Assembly (NCBI GenBank): GCA_036521155.1
Contig: DATDIH010000057.1
Coordinates: 1-58,996, forward strand
Direction of reading: 5' to 3'
Length of the DNA stretch: 58,996 nt
DNA from: Streptosporangiaceae bacterium
GTDB taxonomy: Bacteria > Actinomycetota > Actinomycetes > Streptosporangiales > Streptosporangiaceae
In this document: piece by piece, positions 86-38,359 of the stretch
Position numbering within the stretch: the first letter of the stretch is position 1
How the letters are laid out: each line of letters starts with the position of its first letter
Program-made: the position numbers and the translations under genes
The notes under the pieces: model-generated
The model's database searches: none
The model's input: the letters and a program-made list of their open reading frames with translations, nothing else
Told to the model about the DNA's origin: nothing

Positions 86-2280
<2,195 letters not shown>

Positions 2281-6129: not shown

Positions 6130-6150
6130 CCGGGCCCGCTTCGAATTCGC

Positions 6151-6183
6151 CGAAGGCTGACGCGTCCAGCGCGTCAGCCTTCG
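6151..6183 (+). terminator. 14-bp perfect stem-loop between pup and prcB (attenuator or partial terminator)
   Basis: CGAAGGCTGACGCG (6151-6164), 5-nt loop, CGCGTCAGCCTTCG (6170-6183), then TATTTGG. It begins 22 nt after the pup stop codon. Confidence 0.55.
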
Positions 6184-6261
6184 TATTTGGTGGCCGCTGG
6201 CCAGTAGGGTCGGCACAGTAGGGTCTTGTTCAGGGTTTCGTTCACATACGGAAGGATCCGC

Positions 6262-7149: not shown

Positions 7150-7206
7150 CCAGCGTCCCTCCCGCCAACGTCCCAGCCCAACTCGCCAGTAAAGGAAGCG
7201 CCCGCG

Positions 7207-8043: not shown

Positions 8044-8066
8044 TCGCCCGGTCCGGTCCGGTCCGC

Positions 8067-11075: not shown

Positions 11076-11095
11076 TGAGTTCTCCTTGCCGGCGG

Positions 11096-12343: not shown

Positions 12344-12425
12344 TGTGATCGGCTCCTCAGTTCTCGTCCCGCCGGGCCCGATGATCCGGCCCCGGCGGGT
12401 CATCCCGCTTCGCTGACCCGGGCGG

Positions 12426-12674
12426 TCAGCTGGCGTTCTTGTGCACGTAGTTGACGACGTCCTGAACCGTCTTCAGGTCCTTGAGCTGGTCGTCCGGAAT
12501 CTCCACGCCGAATTTGTCCTGCGCGGCAACGGCGATCTCGACCATGGACAGCGAGTCGATGTCGAGGTCGTCCACGAAGCTCTTCTCGGGGGTCACTTCG
12601 TCGGCGGGCACGCCCGCGATCTCGTCGACGATCTCCCCGAGACCCTGCAGGATTTCCTGGTCGCTTAGTGCCAT
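12426..12674 (-). CDS. acpP: Acyl carrier protein
   Basis: 82 aa from the ATG at 12674, with the phosphopantetheine site DLDIDSLSMVEI. The track ORF (to 12779) is an upstream extension. Confidence 0.9.
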   Translation of the reverse strand: MALSDQEILQGLGEIVDEIAGVPADEVTPEKSFVDDLDIDSLSMVEIAVAAQDKFGVEIPDDQLKDLKTVQDVVNYVHKNAS

Positions 12675-12745
12675 GTGCCTGCTATCTCCCATCGATGTGG
12701 TTGGTTCTGCGGCCGCGGGTTCGTACCCGCTGGGCCGAAGTTCGG

Positions 12746-13717
12746 TCAGGGTACCGTGATCACTTGCGCGGCGTAGCACATGCCCGCGCCGAAGCCCAGC
12801 AGCAGCACCGGACCGCCGGAGGTCAGCTCACCGCGTTCGGCCATCCGGGCCAGAGCCAGCGGGATAGACGCCGAAGACGTGTTGCCGGCGTACTTGATGT
12901 CGTCCGCGACCCGGTCCCGCGGCACTCCGATCTTGCGGGCCAGCGCCTCGACGATGCGCAGGTTGGCCTGGTGCGGTACGAACGCCTGCAGCTCACCGGG
13001 CTCGACCCCGGCCCGCTCGCACGCGGCCAGCGCGGTCGGGTACAGGGCAGTGGTCGCCCAGCGGAACACCGCCTGGCCCTCCTGGAACAGGAACGACGTG
13101 CGGTCCTTGATCACGATGCGGTCGGCGATGTCACCGGCGCTGCCCCAGACCACCGGCCCGACCACGCCCGGCGCGTCCTCCGGATCGGTCAGCGGCCCGA
13201 CCACAGCCGCACCGGCGCCGTCGGCGAAGATGATCCCCGTCGACCGGTCCAGCGGGTCCACCCAGGCCGACATCTTCTCCGACCCGATGACCAGGACATG
13301 GCGGGCGCTCCCGCTGCGGATCGCATCGCTGGCGTTGGCCAGCCCGTAGCAGAAGCCCGCGCAGGCCGCGTTGACGTCGTAGGCGCCGGGCGCGTTGATG
13401 CCGAGCCGGCTGGCCACCCCCGCCGACACGTTCGGGATCGGGGCCTCGGCGCTGCAGGTGGCCACGATGACCAGGTCGATCTCGGACGGGCTGACCCCGC
13501 TGTTGGCGATGGCCTTGCCCGCAGCGGCCACGGCCATGTCGGCCACGGTCTCCTCGGGTCCGGCGATCCGGCGGCTGATGATGCCGACGCGGCTGCGGAT
13601 CCACTCATCGTTGGTGTCCATCACGGCCGCGAGGTCGTCGTTGGTCACCACGTTGTCCGGCTGGTAGCCGCCGAAGGCCAGAATCCTGGCTCCTGCGACC
13701 GGTTCGGGGAGTCGCAT
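12746..13717 (-). CDS. fabH: Beta-ketoacyl-ACP synthase III FabH
   Basis: Catalytic triad contexts are AACAGFCYGL (Cys), VPHQAN (His) and GNTSSASIP (Asn). The ATG at 13717 gives MRLPEPVAGARILAFGGY. The 405-aa track ORF has an Arg/Gly/Pro-rich non-coding-looking extension. Confidence 0.9.
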   Translation of the reverse strand: MRLPEPVAGARILAFGGYQPDNVVTNDDLAAVMDTNDEWIRSRVGIISRRIAGPEETVADMAVAAAGKAIANSGVSPSEIDLVIVATCSAEAPIPNVSAGVASRLGINAPGAYDVNAACAGFCYGLANASDAIRSGSARHVLVIGSEKMSAWVDPLDRSTGIIFADGAGAAVVGPLTDPEDAPGVVGPVVWGSAGDIADRIVIKDRTSFLFQEGQAVFRWATTALYPTALAACERAGVEPGELQAFVPHQANLRIVEALARKIGVPRDRVADDIKYAGNTSSASIPLALARMAERGELTSGGPVLLLGFGAGMCYAAQVITVP

Positions 13718-13731
13718 GTGCTTGACCAGGA

Positions 13732-14064
13732 CTATTCGGTGCCGTCGGACGGGGCGTCGGGCAGCAGGCGCGCCACCGGCTGGCCCAGGGTCACCGGGTC
13801 GCCGTCCTGCACCAGCCATTCGATGATCGCGCCGCGCCACGGCGCCACGATGGCCTGCCGGTCCCGGCGGGCCTCGATGTACCCGACCACGGTGCCACTC
13901 TGGTTGTCCTCGGCCGCGGCGGCGTGGAAGATACCCCGCTGCGGGGCCACCACCAGCCGCCACTCGAGCAGGTCGCCCGCGAGAACGGCGCCGAGCTTGG
14001 CGTCCCAGTCGTATTCCTCGGAAACGTGGCCGGGAACAGCCCCGGTAGGCAGCGAGATGGTCAT
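13732..14064 (-). CDS. Biotinyl/lipoyl-domain-like small protein lacking the modifiable lysine
   Basis: 110 aa with high GC3. Its ATG overlaps the fabD stop (ATGA), and its stop lies 14 nt before the fabH ATG. VVAPQRGIF...GTVVGYIEARRDRQAIVAPWRGAIIEWLVQDGDPVTLGQPVARL aligns by eye to the BCCP biotinyl domain, with EAMKM replaced by EARRD. Confidence 0.6.
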   Translation of the reverse strand: MTISLPTGAVPGHVSEEYDWDAKLGAVLAGDLLEWRLVVAPQRGIFHAAAAEDNQSGTVVGYIEARRDRQAIVAPWRGAIIEWLVQDGDPVTLGQPVARLLPDAPSDGTE

Positions 14065-15059
14065 GATCCCTCCATGGGGTCAGCAGGTGCGGAACCGGCG
14101 TCGCTGCCGTATTCGGCGATCAGCTTGCGGGCGGCGTCCAGGTCGTCGGGGCTCTTCACGGCCTGCAGGGTCACTCCCGGCAGGGCCCGGCGGGCAATAC
14201 CGGTCAGCGTCCCGGCGGGCGGCAGCTCGATCAGCGCCTGCACGCCACGCTCGGCCAGGGTGTGCTGGCATTCGTCCCAGCGAACTGGGCGGGCCACCTG
14301 GCCGACGATGCGGTCCAGCCAGTCGGTGCCCGAGGTAACCACGGCGCCGTCCTTGTTGGACAGCAGCACTATCTGCGGGTCGCTGACCGTGACCGTCCCG
14401 GCCGCGGTGCGCAGCGCGTCCACCGCGGGCGCCATGTGCTCGGTGTGGAACGCGCCCGCCACTGACAGCGGCCGCAGCCGCGCCTTGGGTGGCGGGTCGG
14501 CCGCGAACGCGGCCAGCTGCTCGAGCGTGCCCGCCGCCACGACCTGCCCGGCCGTGTTGATGTTGGCCGGGGTCAGCCCGTGGGCCTCGACCGAGGCCAG
14601 CACTTCCTTCTCGTTCCCGCCCAGCACGGCGGTCATCCCGGTCGGCGTGACGGCTGAGGCTGCGGCCATGGCCCGGCCGCGCACCGCGACCAGGCGCAGG
14701 GCGTCCGCCGGGCTCAGCACGCCCGCGATCGCGCCCGCGGCCAGCTCACCGACACTGTGCCCGGCCGTGGCCAGGCCCAGCCCGGACGCCGGCAGCCCGT
14801 CCAGCAGGGCGGTCGTGGCCGCCAGGGCCGCCGCGACCAGCAGCGGCTGGGCCACCGCGGTGTCCTTGATCTCTTCCTCGGTGCCGGTCGTGCCATACCG
14901 GACCAGATCGACCCCGGCCAGCTCGGACCACCCGGCGAGCCGTTCGGCCACACCGGGGACGTCGAGCCAGGGCGAGAGGAAGCCGGGGGTCTGGGCCCCC
15001 TGGCCAGGAGCAGTAATGACCAGCACCGTCCTAGCCTGCACTGTAGAAGTTCGCCACAC
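14061..15059 (-). CDS. fabD: Malonyl-CoA:ACP transacylase FabD
   Basis: APGQGAQ N-terminal motif and active-site GHSVGE. The true start is probably the in-frame GTG at 15026 (VLVITAPGQGAQ); 15059 is the outermost start. Confidence 0.9.
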   Translation of the reverse strand: MWRTSTVQARTVLVITAPGQGAQTPGFLSPWLDVPGVAERLAGWSELAGVDLVRYGTTGTEEEIKDTAVAQPLLVAAALAATTALLDGLPASGLGLATAGHSVGELAAGAIAGVLSPADALRLVAVRGRAMAAASAVTPTGMTAVLGGNEKEVLASVEAHGLTPANINTAGQVVAAGTLEQLAAFAADPPPKARLRPLSVAGAFHTEHMAPAVDALRTAAGTVTVSDPQIVLLSNKDGAVVTSGTDWLDRIVGQVARPVRWDECQHTLAERGVQALIELPPAGTLTGIARRALPGVTLQAVKSPDDLDAARKLIAEYGSDAGSAPADPMEGS

Positions 15060-15237
15060 CCATCACGGACACGACGAAATTTCCGGGTGTGCCTTTGTAC
15101 CGTTCCGACAAATAGCGTTCACCTGGGGGTCACCAAGCTGTTGCACGGCGCTGTGAGCATGCCCGTGGCTGGCGTTGGTATAGCGTCAACTGGGCAGCAA
15201 CACGTCAATACGTCCCGATGAGGAACGGTGATCGGCG

Positions 15238-15711
15238 ATGACTGACTCCCTCAGCGACAGTTCCGTCGGCGGGGCGCCTGCTCCTTCACCGCTGAAACCA
15301 CTCGGCGAAGCGGAATGCTGGGACCTGCTCCGCGGGACCGGCATCGGCCGGGTGAGCTACTCGGGCCGGTTCGGGCCCATGATCCTTCCGATCAACTTCC
15401 AGGTCCGGGACGAGGCGATCTACTTCCGGGTCGCCGAGCACGGCCCGACCGGCGAGGACCTGCGCACCGGCATCGCGCACGCCGACTATCGCGTGGCTTT
15501 CCAGGCCGACCAGTTCGACTCGCGGACACGCAGCGGCTGGAGCGTGCTCGTGCAGGGTGACGTGCACCCCATGGAAACCGACGAAGAGCGTGCGACCGTG
15601 GCCCGGATCTGCGTCGAGTCCTGGGTCTCTGGCCCGCGTGAGCTGTTCATGCGCATCACTCCCGTTCACCTGTCCGGGCACCGCATCGGCCACGGGCCGG
15701 ACGCGGGATGA
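15238..15711 (+). CDS. Pyridoxamine 5'-phosphate oxidase-family (FMN/F420-binding split-barrel) protein
   Basis: 157 aa. The pattern CWDLLRGTGIGRVSY...ILPINFQV...IYFRV is typical of the PPOX-like family. Confidence 0.65.
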   Translation: MTDSLSDSSVGGAPAPSPLKPLGEAECWDLLRGTGIGRVSYSGRFGPMILPINFQVRDEAIYFRVAEHGPTGEDLRTGIAHADYRVAFQADQFDSRTRSGWSVLVQGDVHPMETDEERATVARICVESWVSGPRELFMRITPVHLSGHRIGHGPDAG

Positions 15712-16490
15712 CCGACCGCGACTTCCCGCAGACGGCGGTGGAGGTCAACCACGTCGAGCCCGCCCCTCGCCGGGTCCGCGGCTTCCTCGGCCAGGAGCTG
15801 ATCTTCGACACCGCCGCCGCCCGCTACGTGTGGGAGATTCCGTACTACCCGCAGTACTACATCCCGGTCACCGACGTTGATAAGCGCTTCCTGACCGACG
15901 AAGGCGTCCGCCAGAGCACTCGCCGCGGCCCGGCCCACCGCCATGGCCTGCACGCGGGCGGCCAGGACCGCCCCGGCGCCGTCCGAATCTACGGCGACGA
16001 CGCCATCCCCGGCGTGGCCGGCACCGCCCGCTTCGAATGGGCTGCGCTCGACGCCTGGTACGAAGAAGACGAGCAGATCTTCGTCCACCCCCGCAACCCG
16101 TACGCTCGGGTCGACGCGCTCCGCTCCCACCGCCGCGTCCGGGTCTCTCTGGACGGCGTCACCCTGGCCGAGACCGATACTCCGGTCCTGGTCTTCGAGA
16201 CCGGCCTGCCCACCCGCTACTACATCGACCGCACGGACGTGTCGTTCGCGCACCTGGTCCCCAGCGATACTCAGACCGCCTGCCCCTACAAGGGCGTCAC
16301 CAGCCAGTACTGGTCGGTGCAACTCGACTCGGGCCCCATCCGTCCCGAGCACCAGGATCTGGCCTGGGCCTACGATTTCCCCACCCGCCAGTTGCTCCCC
16401 GTGGCTGGCCTGGTCGCCTTCTACAACGAGAAGCTGGACATCGAAATCGACGGCCACCCGCTGCCGCGCCCGCACACCCACTTCTCCTGA
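15708..16490 (+). CDS. DUF427 domain protein (two DUF427 repeats)
   Basis: 260 aa, ATGA-coupled to the preceding ORF. The second repeat carries the hallmark CPYKGVTSQYWSV. Confidence 0.7.
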   Translation: MTDRDFPQTAVEVNHVEPAPRRVRGFLGQELIFDTAAARYVWEIPYYPQYYIPVTDVDKRFLTDEGVRQSTRRGPAHRHGLHAGGQDRPGAVRIYGDDAIPGVAGTARFEWAALDAWYEEDEQIFVHPRNPYARVDALRSHRRVRVSLDGVTLAETDTPVLVFETGLPTRYYIDRTDVSFAHLVPSDTQTACPYKGVTSQYWSVQLDSGPIRPEHQDLAWAYDFPTRQLLPVAGLVAFYNEKLDIEIDGHPLPRPHTHFS

Positions 16491-16765
16491 CCCGCGGCTC
16501 CGCCGCTCTCCAAACCCAGGTGGCCACCCGCCCCGCGACGCGCCTAACTTCGCGCAGGCCCGCACCAGGCATCCAAGATCAGTATTGGCTGCAGCCGCCA
16601 AAACCAGCACTGGCCGCACCCCGCCTCGTGAACAGCCACACGTAGTCCGTGCCCCGAGTCTCGGGGAGATTGCTTGTTCGTGGGTGTTGACGCTGCTTTC
16701 TGTCGGGTTTACGGTACCCGAGGAAAACCTATTCCCGCTGTGGGTTGATCCCCTGGGAGGCCACC

Positions 16766-19700
16766 GTGAAGCGAATCGCGTCCGTCCTGACCGTGCTCGC
16801 GCTGGCTCTCCTGGCCCTGGCCCAGGCCGCGCAGGCCTCACCCGCCCAGAGCCGCACCGCCACCCGGACCGTCGCGAAGAGTGGAGCAGGCGCCGTCACC
16901 CGATCCGGGGCGGTCACGCCGGCGACCGACCTTCCATCTGATTCAAATACCTCAGCGACCTCGGACGAGAACCTTTCCGTCGACCTTGGCGCCACCCAGG
17001 GATCATTCGGGCACGGCGCGGACGGCAGCCTCTACGGGCTGTATGACCAGGGCGTGCCGTCGGACAACCTGATCCAGGGTATGGGCCTGCAAACCACCGA
17101 CACCAAGGCGCAGGACGGCCAGCAGCACCCGGGCTCGGACGCGCTGGAGATCGCCCAGCCGTTCGCCAGCAGCGGCGGCAGCGACATCTATATCTACATG
17201 ACTGACGTGTACCGCAACTTCCCCTACGAACGCACGAGCTACGCCCAGTACCAGGGCTACCTGCGTACGGAGGTCAAGCAGGATCTCACGTCGCCCTACC
17301 GGAACCGCATCGTGCTCGTGCCCTACAACGAGCCGGACGGCAACTGGTTCGCCGGGCTGCAGAACAACGCGGCCACGCTGGCCGCGTTCGAATCCGAATG
17401 GCAGCAGACCTACCAGCTGATCAAGGGCCTGTGGCCGGCCGCCCGGATCGCCGGGCCGAACTTTTTCCAGTACCAGGGTCAGGCCCTGACCGCATTCCTG
17501 GCTTATTGCCAGCAGAACCATTGCCTGCCCAACATCATCGCCTGGCACGAGCTGAACAACCCGTCCACCATCGCGCCCGACGTGGCCGCGTTCCGCGCCG
17601 CCGAGGCCCCGCTCGGGCTGAACCTGCCGGTCAGCCTGGACGAGTACGCCGCCCGTTACCAGCTCACCAGCCCCGGCCGGATGGTCCAGTGGCTGTCCGC
17701 GATCAACGGCGCCAAGGTCAGCGGTGACCTGCCCTACTGGAACGAAAACGGCACCCTGAGCGACTCGACCTCACAGCAGAACATCCCGAACGCCCAATGG
17801 TGGCTCTACAACTGGTACTCGTCGCTGAACGGCCAGTCCGTCCAGGTCACGCCGCCGCAGGCCAACACCGACAACACCCTGCAGGCGGTGGCCGCGCTGA
17901 ACACCGCCCAACGCCAGGCCCGGATCATCCTCGGCGGCGGGCCGCCCGGGCAGGCCGACGTGACGGTCAAGCACGTCAACCCGGCGGTGTTCGGCCATAC
18001 GGTGCACGCCACCGTGTTGCAGGACGGATGGAGCGGTATGACCGGGGCAGCGGCCGCGCCGACCCGGATCGCCGACAGCGACGTGCCGGTGTCAGCCAAC
18101 GGGTCGGTGAACCTGCCGGTGGACATCACCGGGCCGCCCGGCGGCAGCGGCTGCAACGCCACCGGCGCCCGGGTGCCGGGGAAGATCGGCAACGCGGTCG
18201 CGCTGTGCGGCAACGACGAATACGTGTCGCTGCCGTCCGGAATCGTCAGCGGCCTGCACGACTTCACGGTCTCGGCCTGGGTGAACCCGTCCGTGGACAC
18301 CGCTTGGCAGCGGATCTTCGACTTCGGCACCGGCACCAACGACTACATGTTCCTGACCCTCAACAACGGCAGCGGCCAGCTCCGGTTCGCCATCACCGAC
18401 AGCGGCGCGGGCGGCGAGCAGCAGATCAACGGTACGGGCACGCTGCCGCTCAACACCTGGTCCCAGGTCACCGTCACGATGTCCGGGAGCACCGGCACGC
18501 TGTACGTGGATGGCAAGGCCGTCGGCACCAACACCGCCATGACCCTGGACCCGGCCGACCTCGGCGTCACGAACCAGAACTGGCTGGGCCGGTCCGAGTA
18601 CCCTGCCGATCCGTACTTCAGCGGCGACCTGGACGACGTCGGCATCTACTCCACCGCGCTGTCGGCCAGCCAGGTTGCGGCGCTGGCCGGCGGGCAGGCC
18701 GCCGCCGGAGACGTCGCCGACTACAGCTTCGACGAGACCAGTGGGGCCACCGCCCTCGACTCGTCCGGCAACGGCCGCAACGCCACCATCATCTCCGACC
18801 CGCAGGTGCCCACCTCGATGGATGCCTACGAAATTATCCTCAGCCCTGGCGGTACCGGTTCGGGCACCCCGGCCGACGGCACCAGCCCGCTCAGCTACGC
18901 CGCCGCGGACGCCACCATGACCGGCGCCGGCTGGAACATCAACACCGAGGGCACCCCATCCAACCTGGGCGGCTTCGCGACTTACGCCGACCAGGACGTC
19001 GGTGGTCTTCGGACCGGGTCGTCCACGGTCATCACGTTCAACGTCAACGTCCCGCAGACCGGTGACTACCTGATGCGGGTGTTCGACGGTAGTGATGCCC
19101 AGGCCTCCGACGTGTCCGGCCCGACCAACATCTTCGCCCGGGTCGACGGCGGACCGCCGGCCGAGATCTGGCTGCCGGATGCCTACAACTGGGTGATCTG
19201 GAATTACGGCACGGCTCAGCTGCATCTGACCGCAGGCGCCCATACGATCAGCCTGTCCACGGCCGGCGCAAACGGGGCAGTGACCACGGGCGACGCCATC
19301 ATCGACAAGATCGATCTCACGCCGCAGTCCGCGTCCGGTGCGGTGATCTACGAGGCCGAGCAGGCCCAGCTGGCTAACGGCGCCCGCGCCGACTATGCCC
19401 GCCAGGGCCAGTCCGGAGCGGGTGCGGCCGACATCGCCCGCGGTCAGGACGTTACGTTCTGGGTGTATTCGGCCTCCGACGGCTACTCCGACCTGGCCTT
19501 CCGCTCCCGTGGCCGGGGCGCGGCCGGGGTGAGCGTCAACGGGCTGCCGCTGTCCGGGGACCTGCCCACGGGTGACGGCCGTTCATGGTCGACGCAGACC
19601 GACCGGGTCTACCTCAGCGCGGGTGTCAACAAGGTCGTGGTGACCGGGCGCGGGGGAGCGGTCACCCTGGACAAGCTCACGGTCACCTCAGTTACTGGTG

Positions 19701-25311: not shown

Positions 25312-28152
25312 CTAGCCGCGCACCTCGGGCTGGTTCTCCGTCTCCGGGCGGCCCGGGACGTTGGCCTGGACCGTGGCCTGCGGGTCCTGCAGGGCCTCGC
25401 TGACCGGCCGGTCCAGCCGGTACTTCTCGATGGCCTGGCCCAGCACGTCCGGCTTGACCTCGCCGCTCTTGGCCAGCTGGCTGAGCACAGCCACCGTGAC
25501 CGACTCCGCGTCCACGTGGAAGAAGCGGCGGGCCGCGGCCCGGGTGTCGGAGAAGCCGAAGCCGTCGGTGCCGAGCGAGGTGTACGAAGCCGGCACCCAG
25601 CGGGCGATCTGGTCCGGGACGGCCCGGATCCAGTCGCTCACCGCGACGACCGGCCCCGGCCGTCCGTCCAGCGCCTGGGTCACGTACGGGACCCGGTGGT
25701 CGGCGTCGGGGTGCAGCAGGTTCCACTCCTCGGCCGCCATCGCGTCCCGCCGCAGCTCGGTCCACGAGGTCGCCGACCACACCGATGCGGACACGCCCCA
25801 GTCGTCGGCCAGCAGCTGCTGAGCCTGGAGCGCGGCCCGTACGGCCACCCCAGAGGCCAGGATCTGAGCCTGCGGATGGTCGCCGTTGCCGTCGGGCTGA
25901 GCAGCGGGCGCGGGCGCGTACTCGTACAGCCCGCGCAGGATGCCCCGCTCCAGCGCGGCCTGGCCGCCCGGGTAGTTGACCGGCTCGGCAGGCTGCGGGT
26001 ACGGCTCGTTGTAAATGGTCAGGTAGTAGAAGATGTTCTCGCCCTCGGGGTGATCCGGGGTCGAGGTGTACATCCGCCGCAGCGCGTCCTTGACCACGTA
26101 GGCGATCTCGAACGCCCAGGCCGGGTCGTACGACAAGCAGGCCTCGCTGACCGAGGCCAGCAGGACGGAGTGGCCGTCGTTGTGCTGCAGGCCCTCACCG
26201 GTCAGCGTGGTCCGCCCGGCGGTGGCGCCGAGCAGGAACCCGCGGCCAAGCTGGTCGCCGAGCGCCCACATCTGGTCGCCGGTCCGCTGCCAGCCGAACA
26301 TCGAATAGAAGATGTAGATCGGGATCATGTGCGTGCTGTGCGTGGCGTAGGAGGTGCCGGCCGCGATCATCGAGCCCATCGCGCCGTCCTCGTTGATCCC
26401 CTCGTGCAGGATCTGGCCCTTCTCGGACTCCTTGTACGACAGCAGCAGGTTGCGGTCCACGGCCTCGTAGGTCTGCCCGTGCGGCGAGTAGATCTTGGCC
26501 GACGGGAACAGCGAGTCCATGCCGAACGTGCGCGCCTCGTCCGGGATGATCGGCACGAACCGGGCGCCGATCTCCTTGTCCTTCATCAGCTCCTTGAGGA
26601 GCCGGACAAAGGCCATGGTGGTGGCGATCGGCTGCTTGCCGGAGCCCTTCTTGAGCTCGTCGTAGGTCTTGTCCGGTACCGGCGGCAGTGGCTTGGCCCG
26701 TACGACACGCTTGGGCAGTTCGCCGCCCAGGGCGGCCCGCCGCTCCTTCATGTACTGGATCTCGTCGGAGTCCTCGCCCGGGTGGTAGTAGGGCGGCAGG
26801 TCCGCTTCCAGCGCCTTGTCCGAGATCGGCAGGTACAGCCGGTCGCGGAACTCCTTCAGCTCGGCGTGGGTGAGCTTCTTCATCTGGTGGGTGGCGTTGC
26901 GGGCCTCGAAGTCCGGCCCCAGCGTCCAGCCCTTGATGGTGTGGGTGAGGATCACCGTCGGCTGGCCGACGTGCTCACGGGCCGACTTGAAGGCCGCGTA
27001 GACCTTGCGGTAGTCGTGCCCGCCGCGGGACAGGTTGCGCAGGTCGTCGTCGGACAGGTGCTCAACCATCTTGCGCAGCCGCGGGTCACCGCCGAAGAAG
27101 TTGTCCCGGATGTACCCGCCGCTCTCCACCGAGTAGGTCTGGAATTGCCCGTCCGGCGTGCTGTTCATCTTGTTGACCAGCACACCGTCGGTGTCCTGGG
27201 CCAGCAGCGGGTCCCAGTCGCGACCCCAGATGACCTTGATCACGTTCCAGCCTGCGCCGCGGAAGTACGCTTCCAGCTCCTGGATGATCTTGCCATTGCC
27301 GCGAACGGGTCCGTCCAGCCGCTGCAGGTTGCAATTGATAACGAAGGTCAGGTTGTCGAGTTCCTCGCGAGCCGCGAGCCCGATCGCACCGAGTGCCTCG
27401 GGCTCGTCCATCTCGCCGTCGCCGAGGAACGCCCAGACGTGCGAGCGGCTGGTGTCGTGCAGCTCTCGCGCCAGCAGGTACCGGTTGAACCGGGCCTGGT
27501 AGATGGCGTTGAGCGGGCCGAGGCCCATGGAGACGGTGGGGAACTCCCAGAAGTCCGGCATCAGCCGCGGGTGCGGGTACGACGGCAGGCCGCCGCCCGG
27601 GTGGGACAGTTCCTGGCGGAACCCGTCCAGGCGCTGCTCGCTCAGCCGGCCCTCGAGGAACGCACGGGCGTAGATACCGGGGGCCGCGTGCCCCTGGAAG
27701 AAGACCTGGTCGCCGGATTCGCCATGGTCCTTGCCGTGGAAGAAGTGGTTGAAGCCCACCTCGTACAGGCTGGCCGCGGACGCGTAGGTGGCGATGTGGC
27801 CGCCCACGCCCAGGCCCGGCCGGTTCGCGCGGGAGACCATGACCGCCGCGTTCCACCGGATGTAGGCCCGGATCCGGCGTTCGACGTACTCGTCGCCCGG
27901 GAACCATGGCTCGCGCTCCGGCGGGATGGTGTTGATGAAATCGGTGCTGCGCAGTCCCGGCACGCCGACCTGCTGCTCACGCGCCCGCTCCAGCAGCCGG
28001 AGCATCACGTACCGGGCGCGCCCGCGGCCGCGGGTCTGCACGACCGTGTCGAATGAATCGACCCATTCCTTGGTCTCGTCTGGATCGATGTCAGGCAGCT
28101 GGGTCGGAAGCCCGTCATTGATGATCGAGAAGCGCTGGCGTCCGGAAGCCAC
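25312..28152 (-). CDS. aceE: Pyruvate dehydrogenase E1 component, homodimeric type (AceE)
   Basis: 946 aa. N-terminus [18 protein letters not shown], ThDP motif [14 protein letters not shown] start with GGAAGGCGAGG upstream. Confidence 0.95.
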
Positions 28153-29962: not shown

Positions 29963-31936
29963 TCAGGCGTGACTCTCCTGGTAGAGACGCTGCGCCATGG
30001 CCTGATGGTGTCGTGAAAGCCCCGGATCCACGGCTTCCACCGCCTGCCGCGCGAGGTCGGCCACGGCGGCACGGTCGGTCCGCTCCGCGACTCGGGCCGC
30101 GTACAGCAGGACGAAGCCGTTCTGGCGGGCCGCGTTGATGGCCGCGTCGATGTCCTTCCGAGCCGCGTCCCAATCATCCAGCTGGGCGTGGGCCAGCCCC
30201 CGGGCAGCTTGGGCCGAAGGCGGTACGGGGCTCTGCAGCCGCTCGAGGTCGCGGAGCGCGGGCCGGGCATCGCCCAGATCGGCGAGGATCTCGCCCCGGG
30301 CCGCGATCGCTTCGCGGTTCCCGCCGTTGGTGCTCAGGGCCCCGTCGAGAATTGCGACGGCGGCGCGTCCTTCGCCCAGCCACCACAGCGCGCGAGCCAG
30401 TCCCGCCTGCAGGATGGGATCGTCCGGCCCACGGTCCGAGGCCTTGAGCAACTGGTCCCGGGCGTCGCCCAGCTGTCCTTGGTCGATCAGGGTCTGTCCC
30501 ACGGCAGCAAGCTGATAGGCCACGGCGTTGGTGTCGTTTACCGCCGCGAATGCCTCGGCCGCCTGGCGGTACCAGGGCGCCGCGTCGCGCGGTTTCTCCC
30601 GCTCGTAAGCGATGTTGCCCAGCAATGAGCTGGCTTCGGCGCGAAGCCGGAGGTCCACTTCGCCGGCGGCGCGGAGGGTCAGCCGGGCGTAGTGCTCCGC
30701 CGAATCCAGCTCGGACAGGCTCAGCATCCGTTCGGCGGCTCGCAGGTGGCTCTCAGGCGGCGAGGAGGCGGCGGGCCCGACGGCGGCATCGCCCAGCGGT
30801 TCGATCAGCCGGTCGCTGAGAAGCTCATACCAGCGTGAGCCGGGTCGCTGACTGGCCCGCAGCAGATGCTGGTCCTCGAGGGCCCTGACGACCGCATTCG
30901 GCATGCCTGCGGTGACCGTAGCCCCCTCGTACGTGCCGGTGCGCCGGCCGTGCTCGGTGACGAAGGTCTTGATCAGCCAGCGCCGCAGGCGAGAGGCGGT
31001 CACCTCGTGCTCCTCGGCGACCGTGGCCACGGCGTCACCGCAGTATTCGGAGAGCGCCGCGGTCACGTCCCCGTAGCGGCGTACGTCGCGAGTGGCGATG
31101 ACCTTGAGGTCTGCGGGCAGGGTTCGCCACAAGCGAGAGCAGGACACCTGCAGCAGCACCGGCTCGACCGACTCGCTGAAGCTGACCTGCTCGGTGCCGT
31201 CGTCACTGATCAGATTGCTCGTCTGGAGGTCGGTGACCAGGGCGGCGGCGGCGCCACGTTCGAAGGCCCGGCCGGTGCGCTCCAGCGGTCTTTTCACCGC
31301 GTCCAGCGCGCCGCCCGGGCTGAGCGGCCGGACGTCGTAGCGTGCAGCCTGGCGGAAAGCCTTACCCAGCGATGCGCTTGCCTCAGCCCGGACCATCAGC
31401 AGCAAATGCAGCCGGCTGTGCTGTTCCAGTGCGGCCTGGAGCCCCTGGATGAACCTGCGCCGGTGGCTCCACCGGGGCCCGGAGTCGGTGAGCAGTTCTT
31501 CCGCCTGATCGATGACGGCCAGGATCGGTGCGTCGTGCCGTTCGGCCCGCCGCGCAATGAAGTCGGCGATGCTGACCCCGGCCAGGCGCGTTGGTGGTGT
31601 GCCCGGTGACCAGGAACTGAGCAGAGCAATCGAGTACGGGTTCTGCGACGGTAGTGCCGCCCACGGGAATGCGGCGCCGTGCGAGATCCGTCCCGGGGGC
31701 AGCACGTCGGCCTTCCCGGCCTCGACTAATGGCAGCACGCCCGCCTGGAGCAGCGAAGTCTTACCGATCCCCGCGGGCCCGGCAGCGATGCTCAGCCGGC
31801 ATTTCTGCCACAATTTGGCCAGCGCATGCGATTCTTCGTCGCGCCCGAAAAAGCGATCGCGATCACCGTCTTCGAAAGGATGGTCACCGGGGTAAGGCGC
31901 ATCCTTAGTCCGGGGCTTCGCGCCGGTCATCGTCAC
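29963..31936 (-). CDS. nSTAND1-type P-loop NTPase fused to C-terminal TPR repeats
   Basis: 657 aa with a GTG start. The N-terminus is YPGDHPFEDGDRDRFFGRDEE, followed by Walker A AGPAGIGKTSLLQAG and Walker B ILAVIDQAEELL. The C-terminal ~250 aa are TPR-like. It lies 108 nt downstream of the fxsA-like ORF on the same strand. Confidence 0.8.
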   Translation of the reverse strand: MTMTGAKPRTKDAPYPGDHPFEDGDRDRFFGRDEESHALAKLWQKCRLSIAAGPAGIGKTSLLQAGVLPLVEAGKADVLPPGRISHGAAFPWAALPSQNPYSIALLSSWSPGTPPTRLAGVSIADFIARRAERHDAPILAVIDQAEELLTDSGPRWSHRRRFIQGLQAALEQHSRLHLLLMVRAEASASLGKAFRQAARYDVRPLSPGGALDAVKRPLERTGRAFERGAAAALVTDLQTSNLISDDGTEQVSFSESVEPVLLQVSCSRLWRTLPADLKVIATRDVRRYGDVTAALSEYCGDAVATVAEEHEVTASRLRRWLIKTFVTEHGRRTGTYEGATVTAGMPNAVVRALEDQHLLRASQRPGSRWYELLSDRLIEPLGDAAVGPAASSPPESHLRAAERMLSLSELDSAEHYARLTLRAAGEVDLRLRAEASSLLGNIAYEREKPRDAAPWYRQAAEAFAAVNDTNAVAYQLAAVGQTLIDQGQLGDARDQLLKASDRGPDDPILQAGLARALWWLGEGRAAVAILDGALSTNGGNREAIAARGEILADLGDARPALRDLERLQSPVPPSAQAARGLAHAQLDDWDAARKDIDAAINAARQNGFVLLYAARVAERTDRAAVADLARQAVEAVDPGLSRHHQAMAQRLYQESHA

Positions 31937-32044: not shown

Positions 32045-32185
32045 TCAGATACTAGACTGAAATCCCTTGACTTCACGACGCTTGGTGAACGTCAGTATCT
32101 CGTCCAGCGCAGTCGGGCCAGCCGGAGCCTTCTGGTCTGTCTCCGCCGAAACGCCGTCACCTGCGGATTTGATGCTGTAGTCCAT
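32045..32185 (-). CDS. fxsA: FxSxx-COOH (FxsA-like) RiPP precursor peptide, 46 aa; not in the supplied ORF track
   Basis: My hand translation of the minus strand gives MDYSIKSAGDGVSAETDQKAPAGPTALDEILTFTKRREVKGFQSSI*. AGGAG lies 6 nt upstream of the ATG. The C-terminus F-Q-S-S-I-COOH fits the FxSxx-COOH motif. An FxsB-type rSAM and an FxsT-type TPR protein are within 3 kb. Confidence 0.7.
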   Translation of the reverse strand: MDYSIKSAGDGVSAETDQKAPAGPTALDEILTFTKRREVKGFQSSI

Positions 32186-32419
32186 GCTGCGCTCCTAACG
32201 TGGTCGGCGTCCAGTGGCGCGGTCCACGTGATGCCACCCGACAAGCGTCAATTGAGAAATACGTGAGTCTCAGTGGTTTGTCGAGTGGTAAATTCCAGAA
32301 ATTTTTGGCCATATATTAACGTGTGGCTCAGGAGTAACTTCATTCTCAGGTGCAACATGATCGGAGCCAATTTAACTTGCGTCATTTGACGCTATCGCCG
32401 AAACAATAGCGAGCTTAAA

Positions 32420-35035
32420 ATGGCTTGTATGACAGTGCAGGATTTCGGGCAGGGCCGCAGCCGTGAACCTGTGATCTGGGGTAATGTCCCTCAGCGCAAT
32501 AAGAACTTCACAGGCCGCGGAGAGATCCTCGAGTTGCTCAGGCAGCAGGCATCGGCTCGGGTCGCGGTCGTTTCGCCGGAGAAGCCGCCCGAGCCGGGTG
32601 GGAATGGCCAGCCGGGTCAGCATCGGGACGTCACCGATGAGCTGCTGCCAAGAGCTCTGCACGGCCTGGGTGGAGTAGGCAAGACCACGCTCGCGGTGGA
32701 GTACGCCCACCGCTACCGCGGAGACTACGATCTCGTGTGGTGGATCGCGGCCGACGAAATCGCATTAGTACGTGCATCGCTGGCCGCCCTGGCCGACCGG
32801 CTCGGTCTGCGGTCGACCTCGGTCACCGGAATCGAGGGCGCTGCCACCGCCGTCATGGACGCCCTGCGCCGCGGCGAGCCCTACCGCCGGTGGTTGCTGG
32901 TTTATGACAACGCGGACCAGCCCGAAGAGATCGGCGAGCTCATCCCCGGCGGTCCCGGCGACGTCATCATCACGTCCCGGAACAACCGCTGGGCGGCCAA
33001 GGTCGAAACCGTCGAGGTCGACGTGTTCTCCCGGACGGAGAGCACCGAATTCCTGTCCCGCCGCGTCAGCACGGCCATCACCGAGTCCGACGCGGGACGG
33101 CTGGCCCAGGAACTGGGCGACCTGCCGCTGGCCCTGGAACAGGCGGGAGCCCTGCAGGCCGAGACCGGAATGTCGGCCGATGAGTACCTGCGGTTGCTGA
33201 GCGAACAGCCCACCCAGATCATGGCCGAGGGCAAATCGGCCGACTACCCGCGCTCGATGACGGCGGCCTGGATGCTGTCCGTCTCCCAGCTCAAGCAGCA
33301 GCTGCCACAGGCCCTGGACCTGCTGCGCTGTTGCGCATTTTTCGGCCCCGACCCGATCCCGCGGGACGTCTTCCGCCGGGGCAACCAGCCCAAGAAGACC
33401 CGGATGAGCGAGCTCATCGCTGACCCGATCCTGCTGTCCCGGGCCATCCGGGAACTGGGGCGATTCGCGCTGGTGAAGATCGACGCCGGCCGGTCCATCG
33501 CGGTGCACCGGCTCGTGCAGACGTTGCTGCGCGATGAGCTGTCTCCCGAAGACCAGGCCGAGTTCCGCCACGAAGTGCACCTGATCCTGGCCGCTGCGGC
33601 CCCGGAGAACCCGGACGACGAAAAGCTGTGGCCGAGGTTCAACGAGCTCGTCGCCCACGTGGCCGGCGAGGCGACGGACCTGGCCGGTTGCCGCGATCCT
33701 GAGGTACGGGCGTTCGCGCTGAAGATGGTCCGGTATTTCTACCGGTCCGGCGACCACGCCTCGTCGCGTGCTTTTGCCGAACGGTTCGTCTCACGCTGGA
33801 TAGCAGAGTCCGGTCCCGACGATGAGAACGTGCTCGACGGCCAGCGCCACCTTGGCAACGCTCTGCGGGAACTGGGGCAGTACGCCCGGGCCTATGAGGT
33901 CATCAACGAGACCTTCGGACGGGCTCGCCTGGTGCTGGGTGAGCAGAACCCGCTCACGCTGGCGCTCCGCAACTCGCTCGGTGCGGACTTGCGGGCCCGC
34001 GGCGAGTTCGCGGCCGCGCGGGAACTGGACGAGGAGACGCTCGCCCTGCACCGGGAGTTCTACGGCGATGACGACCCGCACACGTTCCGGGCCATGAACA
34101 ACCTGGCGCTGGACCTGGGCCTGAACAGCGAGAACGATAAGGCCCGGGAACTGCACCGGCAGACGTTCCTGCTGCAGAGCGACGACACCACCGGCCGAGT
34201 TTCGTCCTCGGAGGTCGTGGACTCGTGGAACGGCCTGGCTCGGGCCGTCCGGCTCTGTGGCGACTTCCGCGACGCGCGCGACCTGGGTGAAGAGGCGCTG
34301 GACTACGGCCGGGCCAACCTGGGCGACGACCATATTCTCACCCTCCGGACCGCCATCGACCTGTCCATCGCGCTGCGCCGCATGGGGACAGCGGGGGACG
34401 ACGCCCGGACCCTGGCCCAGGAGACCTACGAGACCTGCCGCAGGCGGCTGGGGCTGCGCCAGCCGGATACCATGGCCGCGGCCATCAGCCTGGTCAACAC
34501 TCAGCGGCAGCTGGGCACGCTGGACCCGGCGACGATCGAATTGGCCGAGACCACGGTGCAGCGGTACACCACCGTCTTCAGCCCGCTGCATCCGTATTAC
34601 TTCGGCTGCCTGGGCAACCTCGCGCTGCTGCGCCGGGCCAGCGGCGACGCGGCCGCGGCGCGCGAAATCGATGAGAAGGCGCTCAGTGGCCTGGACGAGA
34701 CCCTGACGCGTGATCACCTGTACTCGCTGTCGATAGCGATCCATCTGGCCAGTGATCTGGCCGCTCTGATGGACCCGGAGGGCGCCCGCGCGCTGGACGA
34801 GGACACCTGGAGGCGTGCCCAGGCGCTGCTCGGCGAGAACGATCCGCTGACCCTGGCCTGCGCCGCCAACCTGTCCCTGGACCTGCGGGCCATGGGCGAC
34901 ACCGCCACCGCCGACGATCTGCTGAAGGATGCGCTGGCTCGCTACCGGGAGACGGGCCACCACGAGTATCAGGAAGCCAGGGCAGCCGCGGCCGGCGAGC
35001 GCGTGGACTTCGAGTTCGATCCGCCTGGCGTCTGA
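32420..35035 (+). CDS. fxsT: FxSxx-COOH-system NB-ARC/TPR protein (FxsT-like STAND NTPase)
   Basis: 871 aa. The NB-ARC motifs are GLGGVGKTTLA (P-loop), LLVYDNAD (Walker B), IITSRN and GDLPLALEQAG (GLPL). The C-terminal ~450 aa are TPR_10/12-like repeats. It is divergent from the fxsA-like ORF. Confidence 0.85.
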   Translation: MACMTVQDFGQGRSREPVIWGNVPQRNKNFTGRGEILELLRQQASARVAVVSPEKPPEPGGNGQPGQHRDVTDELLPRALHGLGGVGKTTLAVEYAHRYRGDYDLVWWIAADEIALVRASLAALADRLGLRSTSVTGIEGAATAVMDALRRGEPYRRWLLVYDNADQPEEIGELIPGGPGDVIITSRNNRWAAKVETVEVDVFSRTESTEFLSRRVSTAITESDAGRLAQELGDLPLALEQAGALQAETGMSADEYLRLLSEQPTQIMAEGKSADYPRSMTAAWMLSVSQLKQQLPQALDLLRCCAFFGPDPIPRDVFRRGNQPKKTRMSELIADPILLSRAIRELGRFALVKIDAGRSIAVHRLVQTLLRDELSPEDQAEFRHEVHLILAAAAPENPDDEKLWPRFNELVAHVAGEATDLAGCRDPEVRAFALKMVRYFYRSGDHASSRAFAERFVSRWIAESGPDDENVLDGQRHLGNALRELGQYARAYEVINETFGRARLVLGEQNPLTLALRNSLGADLRARGEFAAARELDEETLALHREFYGDDDPHTFRAMNNLALDLGLNSENDKARELHRQTFLLQSDDTTGRVSSSEVVDSWNGLARAVRLCGDFRDARDLGEEALDYGRANLGDDHILTLRTAIDLSIALRRMGTAGDDARTLAQETYETCRRRLGLRQPDTMAAAISLVNTQRQLGTLDPATIELAETTVQRYTTVFSPLHPYYFGCLGNLALLRRASGDAAAAREIDEKALSGLDETLTRDHLYSLSIAIHLASDLAALMDPEGARALDEDTWRRAQALLGENDPLTLACAANLSLDLRAMGDTATADDLLKDALARYRETGHHEYQEARAAAAGERVDFEFDPPGV

Positions 35036-35045
35036 TCACGGTCGG

Positions 35046-36242
35046 TCAGCGTCGGCTCAGGTCGTCGTCGACCACCAGCTTGATGTGATCGATCAGGGCC
35101 ATGAGGTCCGGGCAGTACACCGACGGATTGGCGAAGCCACTGCCGGGGCGGTACCGGTGCGCATACAAGCCGCCACCGCACTCGTGCAGAACGTGGCATT
35201 GACGGCACTTCGGAGCCAGCGCTTGTTCTCCCAGCTGGCGAGCGACCATGCCGGGCAGGTAGAGCGCCTGATCGAACGGGTGGTGGCCAACGTGCAGGCC
35301 GGTCGCGGGTGCTCCCTCGTAGGCCGCTTTCAGCAGGTCGGACTGCTCGATGGACCCGTCCGTCTCGATGACCAGGGTTCTGGACGGGCCGAGGCCCACC
35401 ATTTCCGCCTCGACATCGTGGCCCATGGCCAGGCGCATGATCGTGTCGAACAGCCGGATGCGGGTCTTGAACTCGTGGTACCAGTGGTCGAAGACGGTAA
35501 TCAGCCAGCCGGCGTACGGAGTGTCGGGGAGATCAGGTATGCGCCCAGGCGGCGGATCGGCCCATGTTCCGTGCGGCATCAGAAAGTCGATCTGCGGCGG
35601 GTCGAAAGAGGCCAGGGCCTGGTAGGTCGCGAGTGGGTCGTTCCGCAGGTCGATCGTGCAGAGCAGCCCGCTGAACAGGTGCCGGTAACGGTCACCGGTC
35701 AGGCGCTCAAGGCCGGTTGCCACGGCCCTGTGGCTGCCGCGCCCGCTGGCGAACCGGCGGTGCCGATCGTGCGCCTCGGGTGCGCCGTCCAGGCTCACGC
35801 CCACCTGCACGCCGAGATCATCGAAGAGATCCAGGAAGGGTTCGCTCAGGCCCACCCCGTTCGTTTGCACCCAAACGCTGACGTTGACCTTTGCGTCAAC
35901 CGCCTCGCGGGTCGCGCCCACAAGCTGAGCGATAAGGTCCCGCCCGGCCAGTAAGGGCTCGCCGCCATGGAGGATCAGCGAAATGTCTGGCACGTTGTGC
36001 GCACGGACATGCTCGCCAATACGAAATGCTGTTGCCGCCGCCGTCTCACCCGACATGCGCATTGGCTGATCTCGCCACGATTGATCAGCCATCTCGTACA
36101 TGTAGCAGTAGTCACAAGCAAGATCACATCGGCTGTGGACCTTCACCACGAACTCATGAAAAGGTTCTGGCCGCCACCCGCCCAACAGGAGTGCGTCAAC
36201 ATCGAGCGTCGACGGCCACTCGGGTCGTTCGGCAGGACCCAC
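35046..36242 (-). CDS. fxsB: FxsB-family radical SAM/SPASM peptide maturase
   Basis: 398 aa with a GTG start. The radical SAM cluster is VKVHSRCDLACDYCY (CxxxCxxC). The C-terminal SPASM motif is CRQCHVLHECGGG...YCPD. It is convergent with fxsT, with a 10-nt gap. Confidence 0.88.
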   Translation of the reverse strand: MGPAERPEWPSTLDVDALLLGGWRPEPFHEFVVKVHSRCDLACDYCYMYEMADQSWRDQPMRMSGETAAATAFRIGEHVRAHNVPDISLILHGGEPLLAGRDLIAQLVGATREAVDAKVNVSVWVQTNGVGLSEPFLDLFDDLGVQVGVSLDGAPEAHDRHRRFASGRGSHRAVATGLERLTGDRYRHLFSGLLCTIDLRNDPLATYQALASFDPPQIDFLMPHGTWADPPPGRIPDLPDTPYAGWLITVFDHWYHEFKTRIRLFDTIMRLAMGHDVEAEMVGLGPSRTLVIETDGSIEQSDLLKAAYEGAPATGLHVGHHPFDQALYLPGMVARQLGEQALAPKCRQCHVLHECGGGLYAHRYRPGSGFANPSVYCPDLMALIDHIKLVVDDDLSRR

Positions 36243-36760
36243 GTCTCAATTGAATCACACAATTTGCCAAAAATTGAGCCTGCAGTTTGCCCCGACGAAA
36301 TAAATTACCGTGAGTATTGATAGCCCATCGCCGCGGGGGCGGCTCAGACTGAATGACCAGCCGGAAACACCTTGTGATCGTTGGCCGATCGCGAAATCGG
36401 CTCACTACGCCCAGATGCCCCGCGTGTCATTCTCGGTATAACTGCCATCTCACGTCACACGCGTATCTGACGTTACATCATTGTTTAATTTTCCGGCGGG
36501 GCCGAGAAATCTTCGGTTATCTGAAAATTACGATTGAATGTTAACGCGGGTATTAGAGAAACCTTCTTCTGCAACTCGCATTTGCAATATGCATCTTTGC
36601 AAAGAAATCGCCCTGAGCTGGGCATTGCGCCGCTACCATACGGACACCCGGTCTCAATTCACCCATCGGGTCCGCCCGGCGCGGCGCCAGTGGTAGGTTG
36701 CCAGGGTGCGCCGTCCGTTGCTGAACAGCTGTATGCGGTCAGTAAGCCGGTGAGTGCCAC

Positions 36761-38359
36761 ATGACCGTGACGGCACCCGGCGCGCGAACAGCCAGCGCAG
36801 CTACTGTTAAAGAGACGGTCAGCGAAGCGCCGGTGGGCGTGGCGGTGGATGCCGGAGTAGCGTACGGCGCGGAACCGATAGACCTGGGAACGCCCAGCAG
36901 GGAAACGCCCGAAAATATCGAAGCCAGCGAGCAAATTGGCTTCGCCGTTGCAACTCACGCGACAAAACGAAGCCATTCGGCCGGCTCCGAGCTAAATGCT
37001 GCTATAGCCATCGGAGAGATGGCACCACCCACCGGGAATGCGCCGTCTCGCCGCGAGATTTGGAAATACCTTCCCAGCGGAGCGAATGGCAGCTATCTGC
37101 GGCTAGTGGGCGGCTCATCGCTGTCTATGCTGGGTACGCGCATGAGCAGCATTGCCTATCCGATGTTGGTGCTGCTGCTCACGAAATCTCCGATTATGGC
37201 CGGCTGGGCCGCCTTCGCGGCCACGGCGCCCAGCATTCTGGCCTATATCCCGGCTGGCGCCCTGGTCGACCGCTGGAATGCGCGCATTGCCATGCTGGTG
37301 AGTGAGATCGGGCGCGGCTGCGCGATATTGACGGTCGTTCTCGCCTTCTGGCTCGGCCATTCTGCCGGGTGGGTAGTAAGCGTACTGATCGCGATGGCCG
37401 TGCTGGAAGAGACGCTCGAAGTCTTTTCGGGGCTGAGTGAGCGCCGGCTGATCACCGGACTGCTGGGGCGGGCTGACGCGTCGTCGTCCTCCGGCGGCAA
37501 CGAGGCTCGTACCCACGTGGTGGTGATGGTGGGACGGCCAGCGGGAGGGTTGCTCTTCGGCCTCGCGCCCGTTCTGCCGTTCGTGGCCGATGCGTTCTCG
37601 TTCCTGTTCTCGATCGGGTCGCTGGTCACCGTCAAATACCGGAAAAGCTCGGACGCGGTCCAGAGAAGCCCGCGGGACCCCGAATATTCGGCCAAGAAAA
37701 TCCTGGAAGGTCTGCGGTGGGTGTGGCATGACAGATTCGCCCGCGCCGCGTGCTTGCTGAACGCGGGCGGAACGCTGGTCGTGCAAGCGCTCATATTGAT
37801 CTTTTTGTTTGAAGCTGACCGGGTGAAATTTACCTATGAAACCGTCGGAATTGTGCTGGCCTCGACCGGGGCTGGCGGGGTGCTCGGGTCGCTGGTCGCA
37901 AAGCGACTGATGCGGTGGTTCAGCGAAAAGCCACTGCTGCGCTGGTTCAGCGGGCGATGGTTCAGATTTCAGATGTGCCTGTGGCTGATAGTGTTCATCG
38001 GAATTTCCGTGACCATCAACACGCATCATCTGCTGCGGTTTCTTGTCGTGGAAATGTTCGTGATCGGCCTCACCGGAGCCATTGGCAACGTGGAGATCGA
38101 CCGGTATCTGATCGAACGCAGCCCGGATGAGATGCTCGGCCGGGTGGCCAGCGTCAGCAGCCTGATGGATTTCTTCGCCTTCGCCGTCGGGCCGGTGCTC
38201 GGCGGGTGGCTCGTGCAGATAGCCAAGCCAGACCTCGCCATCCTGGTTCTGGCGATGGTGGTCCTCGCGCTCGCGGTGTGGTCGGTGTGGATGCCCTCGG
38301 CGCAACCGGACAACAGCAGCGGGCAGATCGAGCGCACAGCCGAGTGGGCCGAAGCCTGA
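36761..38359 (+). CDS. MFS transporter (EntS/MFS_3-like secretion-effector family)
   Basis: About 12 TM segments, with RMSSIAYPMLVLLLT...PAGALVDRWN typical of MFS_3. The first ~85 aa are non-membrane and may be an over-extension (alternative ATG at 37019). Confidence 0.75.
   Translation: MTVTAPGARTASAATVKETVSEAPVGVAVDAGVAYGAEPIDLGTPSRETPENIEASEQIGFAVATHATKRSHSAGSELNAAIAIGEMAPPTGNAPSRREIWKYLPSGANGSYLRLVGGSSLSMLGTRMSSIAYPMLVLLLTKSPIMAGWAAFAATAPSILAYIPAGALVDRWNARIAMLVSEIGRGCAILTVVLAFWLGHSAGWVVSVLIAMAVLEETLEVFSGLSERRLITGLLGRADASSSSGGNEARTHVVVMVGRPAGGLLFGLAPVLPFVADAFSFLFSIGSLVTVKYRKSSDAVQRSPRDPEYSAKKILEGLRWVWHDRFARAACLLNAGGTLVVQALILIFLFEADRVKFTYETVGIVLASTGAGGVLGSLVAKRLMRWFSEKPLLRWFSGRWFRFQMCLWLIVFIGISVTINTHHLLRFLVVEMFVIGLTGAIGNVEIDRYLIERSPDEMLGRVASVSSLMDFFAFAVGPVLGGWLVQIAKPDLAILVLAMVVLALAVWSVWMPSAQPDNSSGQIERTAEWAEA

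Follow-up and report, generated by a model that had tools for sequence, protein, structure and literature searches.

An open reading frame of 46 codons on the minus strand at 32045..32185 is probably a translated gene for an FxsA-type precursor peptide of a triceptide-class RiPP. It lies in a stretch of 58,996 nucleotides from a member of the Streptosporangiaceae, referred to here as the window. As such, the peptide is a divergent and previously unannotated member of an already known RiPP precursor family rather than a new kind of system. The sequence-only reading had proposed the ORF as the putative substrate of the FxsA type, and this proposal is now supported by synteny with related clusters, by a clade profile that matches the C-terminal 22 residues, and by purifying selection in comparison with a sister peptide. 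The call thus completes an fxs (triceptide) cluster whose substrate gene escapes both the size cut-off and the curated HMM, although no new class of biology follows from it.

The minus strand of 32045..32185 reads ATG GAC TAC AGC ... GGA TTT CAG TCT AGT ATC TGA, and the product is MDYSIKSAGDGVSAETDQKAPAGPTALDEILTFTKRREVKGFQSSI, followed directly by the stop. The ORF is exactly as originally described in position, length and GFQSSI end, and the Shine-Dalgarno-like AGGAG claimed ahead of it can be read directly from the sequence at 32192..32196 (minus strand), 6 nt (cgcagc) 5' of the ATG. This ATG is the sole possible start, since an in-frame TAG lies three codons upstream and other in-frame ATG, GTG or TTG codons are absent; a canonical leader was sought in the other frames 5' of the ATG, and none was found. 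The GC content by codon position (0.55/0.49/0.64) follows a coding pattern, weaker than that of the neighbouring genes, whose GC3 values are 0.78-0.93 compared to 0.64 in the peptide ORF. The C-terminus, G-F-Q-S-S-I-stop, has the F-x-S-x-x-COOH end of the FxsA family, and the core of the peptide is inferred to be F42-Q-S-S-I46. Scans of the peptide against NCBIfam and Pfam gave zero matches.

The ORF is clustered with genes for FxsB (TIGR04269) and FxsT (NF040586), the partners which define the FxsA family. The fxsB gene (35046..36242, minus strand) lies 2.86 kb from the peptide ORF on the same strand and codes for a radical SAM/SPASM maturase of the cyclophane-forming kind, which presumably modifies the peptide. 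Its earlier assignment as FxsB holds firmly: the product reaches 470 bits against TIGR04269 (cut-off 370) over profile positions 1-362 of 363, and residues 31-388 match the rSAM domain of ChlB (PDB 9gm3) with E = 2.6e-77. The translation carries the CxxxCxxC motif (CDLACDYC) and also matches the YhhB model with 344 bits, under the cut-off of 445 for that model. InterPro entry IPR026335 is the FxsB family. Both marks of a triceptide system are thereby present, namely an aromatic-X-X motif in the precursor (F42-Q-S44) and a homologue of the 3-CyFE radical SAM/SPASM enzymes, FxsB.

On the opposite strand, fxsT (32420..35035, plus) codes for the NB-ARC/TPR STAND protein of the FxSxx-COOH system (NF040586, 947 bits), with the Pfam domains NB-ARC, DUF7779, TPR_12 and TPR_10. 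It is divergent from the peptide gene, 234 bp away, and convergent with fxsB, their stop codons being 10 bp apart. Directly 3' of the peptide gene is an nSTAND1/NACHT-TPR gene (29963..31936, minus; Pfam nSTAND1, 1.1e-33), whose orthologues, at 29-55% identity, occupy the same position in most of 80 related loci. This ORF is listed from a GTG at 31936, with an ATG two codons downstream (31930) as an alternative start; comparison with the sister contig L130, described below, suggests that the ATG is the real one. An MFS transporter gene (36761..38359, plus; Pfam MFS_1 and MFS_3) is divergent from fxsB and codes for a candidate exporter. In the nearest loci (L001-L021) a homologue is likewise divergent from fxsB at this position; loci of the Actinomadura type have it 3' of the nSTAND gene. 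When FxsB, FxsT and the nSTAND protein were scanned with PADLOC, they were assigned to no defence system.

Two AT-rich spacers separate the divergent gene pairs. The spacer between fxsT and the peptide gene (32186..32419) has 48-49% GC in its composition profile, compared to 70% in the window, and is presumed to be a bidirectional promoter region; this role we only infer, since a scan of the spacer for the sigma-70 consensus found no site. The second spacer (36243-36760), of 518 bp and 46-55% GC in the 70% GC window, separates fxsB from the MFS gene and is presumably a regulatory region as well; it contains no repeats and no Rfam match. This is also the canonical position of fxsA, directly 5' of fxsB, and inspection of 36243..36760 gave no FxsA-like ORF.

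The position of the peptide gene is shared widely among related clusters. A set of 80 genome loci with FxsB homologues was collected, nearly all from Streptosporangiales and the best of them 69% identical, and most of these hold a common gene order: the divergent MFS gene, fxsB, an optional hydroxylase gene, fxsT on the opposite strand, a small peptide gene and the nSTAND/TPR gene. The order is partly matched by 39 shorter metagenome loci recruited with the FxsT N-terminus, all of which show the divergent pair of fxsT and peptide gene; the same metagenome scan gave nothing above 66% identity except a partial match of 49 residues at 80% (L128). Altogether, more than 100 related loci carry an FxsA-type peptide gene in the slot of the window ORF, divergent from fxsT and just 5' of the nSTAND/TPR gene, and the slot is likewise filled in the genome loci, the metagenome loci and the sister contig. 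The peptides encoded in this slot are obvious FxsA members, such as ...GLMDVRGLNLDELFDAGGESGLQMSLERILADNPDQSADFQSSI (L009) and ...ALRRLLSEEDTGPVAGFTSSI (L022). The slot itself thus speaks for the identity of the window ORF, as related clusters hold FxsA-type genes at the same position.

The surveyed loci also exhibit considerable variety in the number and form of their precursors. Two clusters (L017, 14865-16675; L092, 432-2242) each contain three tandem precursor genes with doubled C-terminal motifs (NFNSFNSSI, NFNSFGSSI and NFNTYSSSI), which suggests that two adjacent or overlapping cyclophanes may be formed. In Planobispora longispora (L033), two full fxs clusters stand back to back in inverted orientation (800-9270 and 10001-18590), each with its own peptide, ending in ...AGFSSAL and ...AGFSSSF. 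The near-invariant Phe is replaced by Trp in the syntenic peptides of L115-L119 (WNEGI or WNQCP) and of L078 (WNNGF). In L005 (15165-15509), a nanopore-derived MAG, the leader box of the FxsA gene and its ...SNSFSASI part are read in two different frames; this split gene is a sequencing error or a pseudogene.

The bare C-terminal pattern is less distinctive than its position. A six-frame scan of the 59-kb window (69.7% GC) found four ORFs of 20 aa or more with an FxSxx-stop end, and from these four occurrences the chance that the pattern lands in the 483-bp spacer is roughly 0.03. The case for the peptide consequently rests on synteny, profile similarity and the sister comparison and not on the motif alone. 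The three other ORFs (15031..15111, minus; 26495..26665, plus; 36143..36262, minus) are all inside or overlap longer ORFs, score nothing against the FxsA profile and have no counterpart across the 80 related loci. Hence the statement that the 46-aa ORF is the only such peptide fails for the pattern as such and stands for a peptide with profile score or counterpart. One of the three, at 36143..36262 (minus), is a 39-aa ORF with a TTG start and the end LFMSSW-stop, out of frame with the 5' end of fxsB that it overlaps; it was rejected as a chance occurrence, having no Shine-Dalgarno sequence, no profile score and no counterpart in the 80 relatives.

The check proposed along with the ORF, a comparison of the peptide to the curated FxSxx-COOH model TIGR04268, came out negative: no match is found at E <= 1 (the cut-off of the model is 28 bits). 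This model is, however, insensitive in the syntenic relatives, of which it matches 26 of 45 at E <= 1 and misses 19. Only about 5 of these 45 reach an E-value equivalent to the cut-off level, and even the clear relative of L009 obtains 16 bits, under the 28-bit cut-off. The silence of TIGR04268 is therefore weak evidence against membership, and the model under-calls precursors in clusters of the Streptosporangiales type. A word-indexed protein search, first with the single peptide as query and next with a profile of two sequences, retrieved only the peptide itself and its sister, P0006.

A profile of the clade itself is more informative. It was built from 71 non-identical syntenic peptides, with the window peptide left out, and the peptide ORF is its single top match among 1318 six-frame fragments of the window, with about 12.3 bits and E = 0.008. 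Of 5000 shuffled versions of the peptide, none equals this score; the best reaches 7.7. The alignment is weak, at 12 bits, and comprises residues 25-46 only (22 residues): TALDEIL, eight residues and GFQSSI, which align to the family consensus rALrriL......GFnSsI. By this clade HMM of 71 peptides, the ORF product thus shows homology in the part of the leader next to the core, AL-x-R-I/L-L followed after 8-10 residues by G-F. The near-invariant feature of the family is a Phe five residues from the end, while position 3 of the motif may be S, N, A, D or Q and some tails are extended.

The N-terminal half behaves differently. The leader box of the family, G-L-I-D-V-S-x-L-S-L-x-x-L (the N-box), which most relatives have, is not detected in the peptide, which obtains no score against an HMM of the box, and the first 27 residues give a score of 30 against the leaders of the relatives, not significantly above the shuffle mean of 28.6. 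In a MAFFT alignment, the peptide is colinear with its relatives from the D of the LID box, yet the box positions are degenerate and the N-terminus is ~10-15 residues shorter.

The notion that an intergenic reading frame ends in FxSxx merely by accident draws on the four pattern matches in the window and on the lack of a match to TIGR04268. It is extremely improbable in light of a slot that is syntenic with those of more than 100 family members, a clade-profile match that is significant against shuffles, and the comparison with the sister peptide, in which the Shine-Dalgarno sequence and the ATG are conserved, the differences are enriched at third codon positions and dN/dS is about 0.19.

This sister peptide, P0006 (MTLGAK-MDKSIESSNDSAPAGDAPANGASVDTDRKAPLRSTALDEILTSGRRPEIKGFQFSI), is the one sister that phmmer recovered when run exhaustively against 1.84 billion representatives. 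Three further matches of this search (P0004, P0005 and P0007) are long repetitive proteins with 5-15 matched stretches each, and were rejected as low-complexity or repeat matches. P0006 is located on contig L130 in the same slot, where its FxsT and nSTAND neighbours are 93% and 86% identical, respectively, to those of the window, and the peptide itself is 63% identical. The ungapped last 31 codons differ 5, 7 and 13 times at codon positions 1, 2 and 3, and the dN/dS of about 0.19 (Nei-Gojobori) may be compared to 0.17 for the nSTAND gene and 0.06 for the FxsT fragment. Across the eight codons of TALDEILT there are 2 synonymous changes and zero replacements, such that the leader segment T25-A-L-D-E-I-L-T32 is fully conserved. 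The two peptides have in common a Shine-Dalgarno sequence and an MDxSIxS start, L130 having AGGGG before its MDKSI start. These values point to purifying selection on the peptide, and, as one pairwise comparison of 46 codons, they are supportive but not conclusive.

The identical 46-aa peptide occurs on at least 20 metagenome contigs. Ten of these were compared at the DNA level and are uninformative regarding selection, because their DNA is >99% identical. Two population variants, A14V and A14V + G23D, are both in frame.

The sister also qualifies two details of the sequence-only reading. The exact F-x-S-x-x-stop spacing is indeed seen in the window peptide (F42-Q-S-S-I46-COOH) but is no fixed rule, as P0006 has Phe in place of Ser44 and ends in FQFSI, and the family as a whole accepts several residues at this position. 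A second aromatic site had been proposed at F33-T-K, before basic residues; F33-T-K-R-R is present as claimed, yet F33 is Ser in the sister, where R36 is kept, and is variable in the family, which argues against a conserved site. In L130 (289-491), P0006 has an insertion of 10 residues in the leader, and its stop lies 13 nt from the nSTAND ATG, compared to about 102-108 nt in the window. The later nSTAND start called in L130 is probably wrong, since the frame is open from 491.

The short distance to the nSTAND/TPR gene, on the same strand (102-108 nt in the window, 13 nt in the sister contig), would also suit a regulatory upstream ORF, whose leader peptide controls this gene and is no RiPP precursor. 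Such a role is very unlikely. Nothing resembling a terminator or attenuator lies between the peptide gene and the nSTAND gene, where the fold has a z-score of +1.1 and a search for terminator sites found none; the consensus scans for promoters and terminators, the RNA fold of this spacer and the Rfam and repeat searches all gave nothing. Moreover, the conserved part of the peptide is its C-terminal Phe motif, common to a family that is partnered by a known peptide cyclase, and some relatives (L017, L092) have three tandem copies, which are typical of RiPP precursors.

In gene order, the window departs from most of its relatives in one respect, the lack of a hydroxylase gene. In the majority of these clusters (e.g., L001, L002 and L009), an aKG-HExxH peptide beta-hydroxylase (TIGR04267) is encoded between fxsB and fxsT. 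In the window the interval between these genes (35036-35045) has no room for it, and a tblastn search of the whole window detects no copy. Of 77 informative loci, 26 lack the hydroxylase. An unsupported NJ tree of FxsB distributes them over four or more lineages, and the window FxsB forms its own deep branch in this tree. The N-box follows a similar distribution: in the peptide slot of L001-L080 (about 14000-15800 in locus coordinates), it reaches 8 bits or more at 37 of the 48 loci with a hydroxylase versus 2 of the 26 without one, with a naive Fisher p = 5e-9 that ignores kinship, in a comparison biased by an N-box profile seeded from hydroxylase-positive loci. Since the box is weak or absent in 24 of the 26 hydroxylase-less loci, it is not a universal component of the precursors.

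These losses could also mark a true FxsA homologue which is no longer a competent substrate of FxsB, i.e., a decaying or repurposed copy that has lost its recognition box along with the hydroxylase. The absence of the N-box, an N-terminal half without significant similarity to the leaders of relatives, the absence of the hydroxylase gene from the whole window, the low GC3 of the ORF and a divergence much faster than that of its neighbours (63% identity to the sister versus 86-93%) are all consistent with this account, which nevertheless appears unlikely. FxsB, FxsT, the nSTAND protein and the MFS transporter are all full length, the dN/dS of the peptide (about 0.19) is close to that of the nSTAND gene (0.17), and the core and the TALDEILT segment are conserved. 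RiPP leaders, in addition, normally evolve fast. Many hydroxylase-less clusters in other genera also have peptides without the N-box, and because this layout recurs, it is read as a functional arrangement and not as decay.

Among the hydroxylase-less clusters are those of the Actinomadura type. In L038, L054, L064, L070, L074 and L077 (about 14020-14270), the peptides have a G-F-D-N-K/R core with a C-terminal extension, and in two of them the tail is Cys-rich (FDNKCAHICDQECDH...). These peptides are not of the FxSxx-COOH form, and they escaped the first profile.

The distribution over the loci suggests a hypothesis of divided labor within the leader, whereby the N-box may serve the hydroxylase and the AL-x-x-I-L segment may serve FxsB. 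The FxsA leader would then be modular, with AL-x-x-I-L for recognition by FxsB and LIDVSxLSLxxL for docking of the hydroxylase, and the window precursor would be a "minimal" form that shed the box after the hydroxylase was lost; this model is offered tentatively, as a possibility with perhaps more against it than for it. More speculatively, the TPR domains of FxsT and of the nSTAND protein, two STAND NTPases that are always linked, could bind the matured C-terminal cyclophane peptide as a ligand. If so, fxs clusters would be modules for peptide signalling or sensing, and not antibiotic clusters.

With the ORF taken as an FxsA-type precursor gene, a course of maturation can be proposed. The peptide gene would be transcribed from the AT-rich spacer that it shares with fxsT, probably together with the nSTAND/TPR gene. 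FxsB would recognise the TALDEILT segment, whose end is ten residues ahead of Phe42, and its 5'-deoxyadenosyl radical would take the beta-hydrogen from Ser44. A bond between the C-beta of Ser44 and the Phe42 ring would then close a three-residue cyclophane spanning F42-Q43-S44, as reported for MscB. This enzyme (IPR026335) joins C4 of Phe to the C-beta of a Ser two residues on (PMC11002830), and Phe motifs give rise to paracyclophanes (PMC11499958). The Phe42-Ser44 cross-link is thus the one expected by analogy to the chemistry of MscB (PMC11002830); it is not guaranteed, because P0006 has a Phe at the presumed acceptor position (FQFSI). No beta-hydroxylation of the cyclophane product would be expected, since the aKG-HExxH hydroxylase is absent. 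A protease would cut off the leader, and the product would be exported by the conserved MFS transporter. Should this scheme hold, the 46-aa peptide and FxsB would form a short and naturally hydroxylase-free pair, a convenient minimal system for studying leader requirements and the tolerance of position 3 (Ser, Phe or Asn).

Among known systems, the closest are the FxSxx-COOH peptides themselves (FxsA, TIGR04268), whose characterised representative is MscA/MscB from Micromonospora (Nguyen et al. 2020, as cited in PMC11002830). The window peptide resembles them in being small, in its F-x-S-x-x-COOH end and in the conserved AL-x-x-I/L-L segment 8-10 residues ahead of the Phe. It shares with the FxsA/FxsB/FxsT system a cluster that includes a TIGR04269 radical SAM/SPASM enzyme and an NF040586 TPR protein, and with the FxsA of Streptosporangiales clusters the same gene slot. 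It differs in having no TIGR04268 score, no LIDVSxLSLxxL box and an N-terminus about 10-15 residues shorter, while its cluster lacks the aKG-HExxH hydroxylase and its FxsB stands on its own deep branch (unsupported NJ).

In the ChlA/ChlB system (PDB 9gm3/9gmc), the rSAM domain of ChlB is a close homologue of the window FxsB, and the expected class of chemistry, a three-residue cyclophane, is the same. ChlB, however, has a fused aKG-HExxH hydroxylase domain and forms several cyclophanes on Tyr-containing motifs, whereas the window has no hydroxylase of any kind and a single conserved aromatic motif. The other triceptide systems, XyeA/XncB, GrrA/OscB, YhhA/YhhB, HaaB and MicA/MicB, likewise combine an aromatic-X-X motif with a cross-linking SPASM radical SAM enzyme. 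Yet they belong to other precursor families with other accessory genes, their motif is often repeated or internal instead of C-terminal, and none has the STAND/TPR gene pair.

The hydroxylase-less fxs clusters of Actinomadura and its relatives (L038, L054, L064, L070 and others) offer a parallel in layout, having the same gene order and peptides which mostly lack the N-box. Their core, however, is G-F-D-N-K/R and is usually extended at the C-terminus, while the F-Q-S-S-I of the window peptide stands at the very end. No other hydroxylase-less locus of the sample has an F-x-S-x-x-COOH end.
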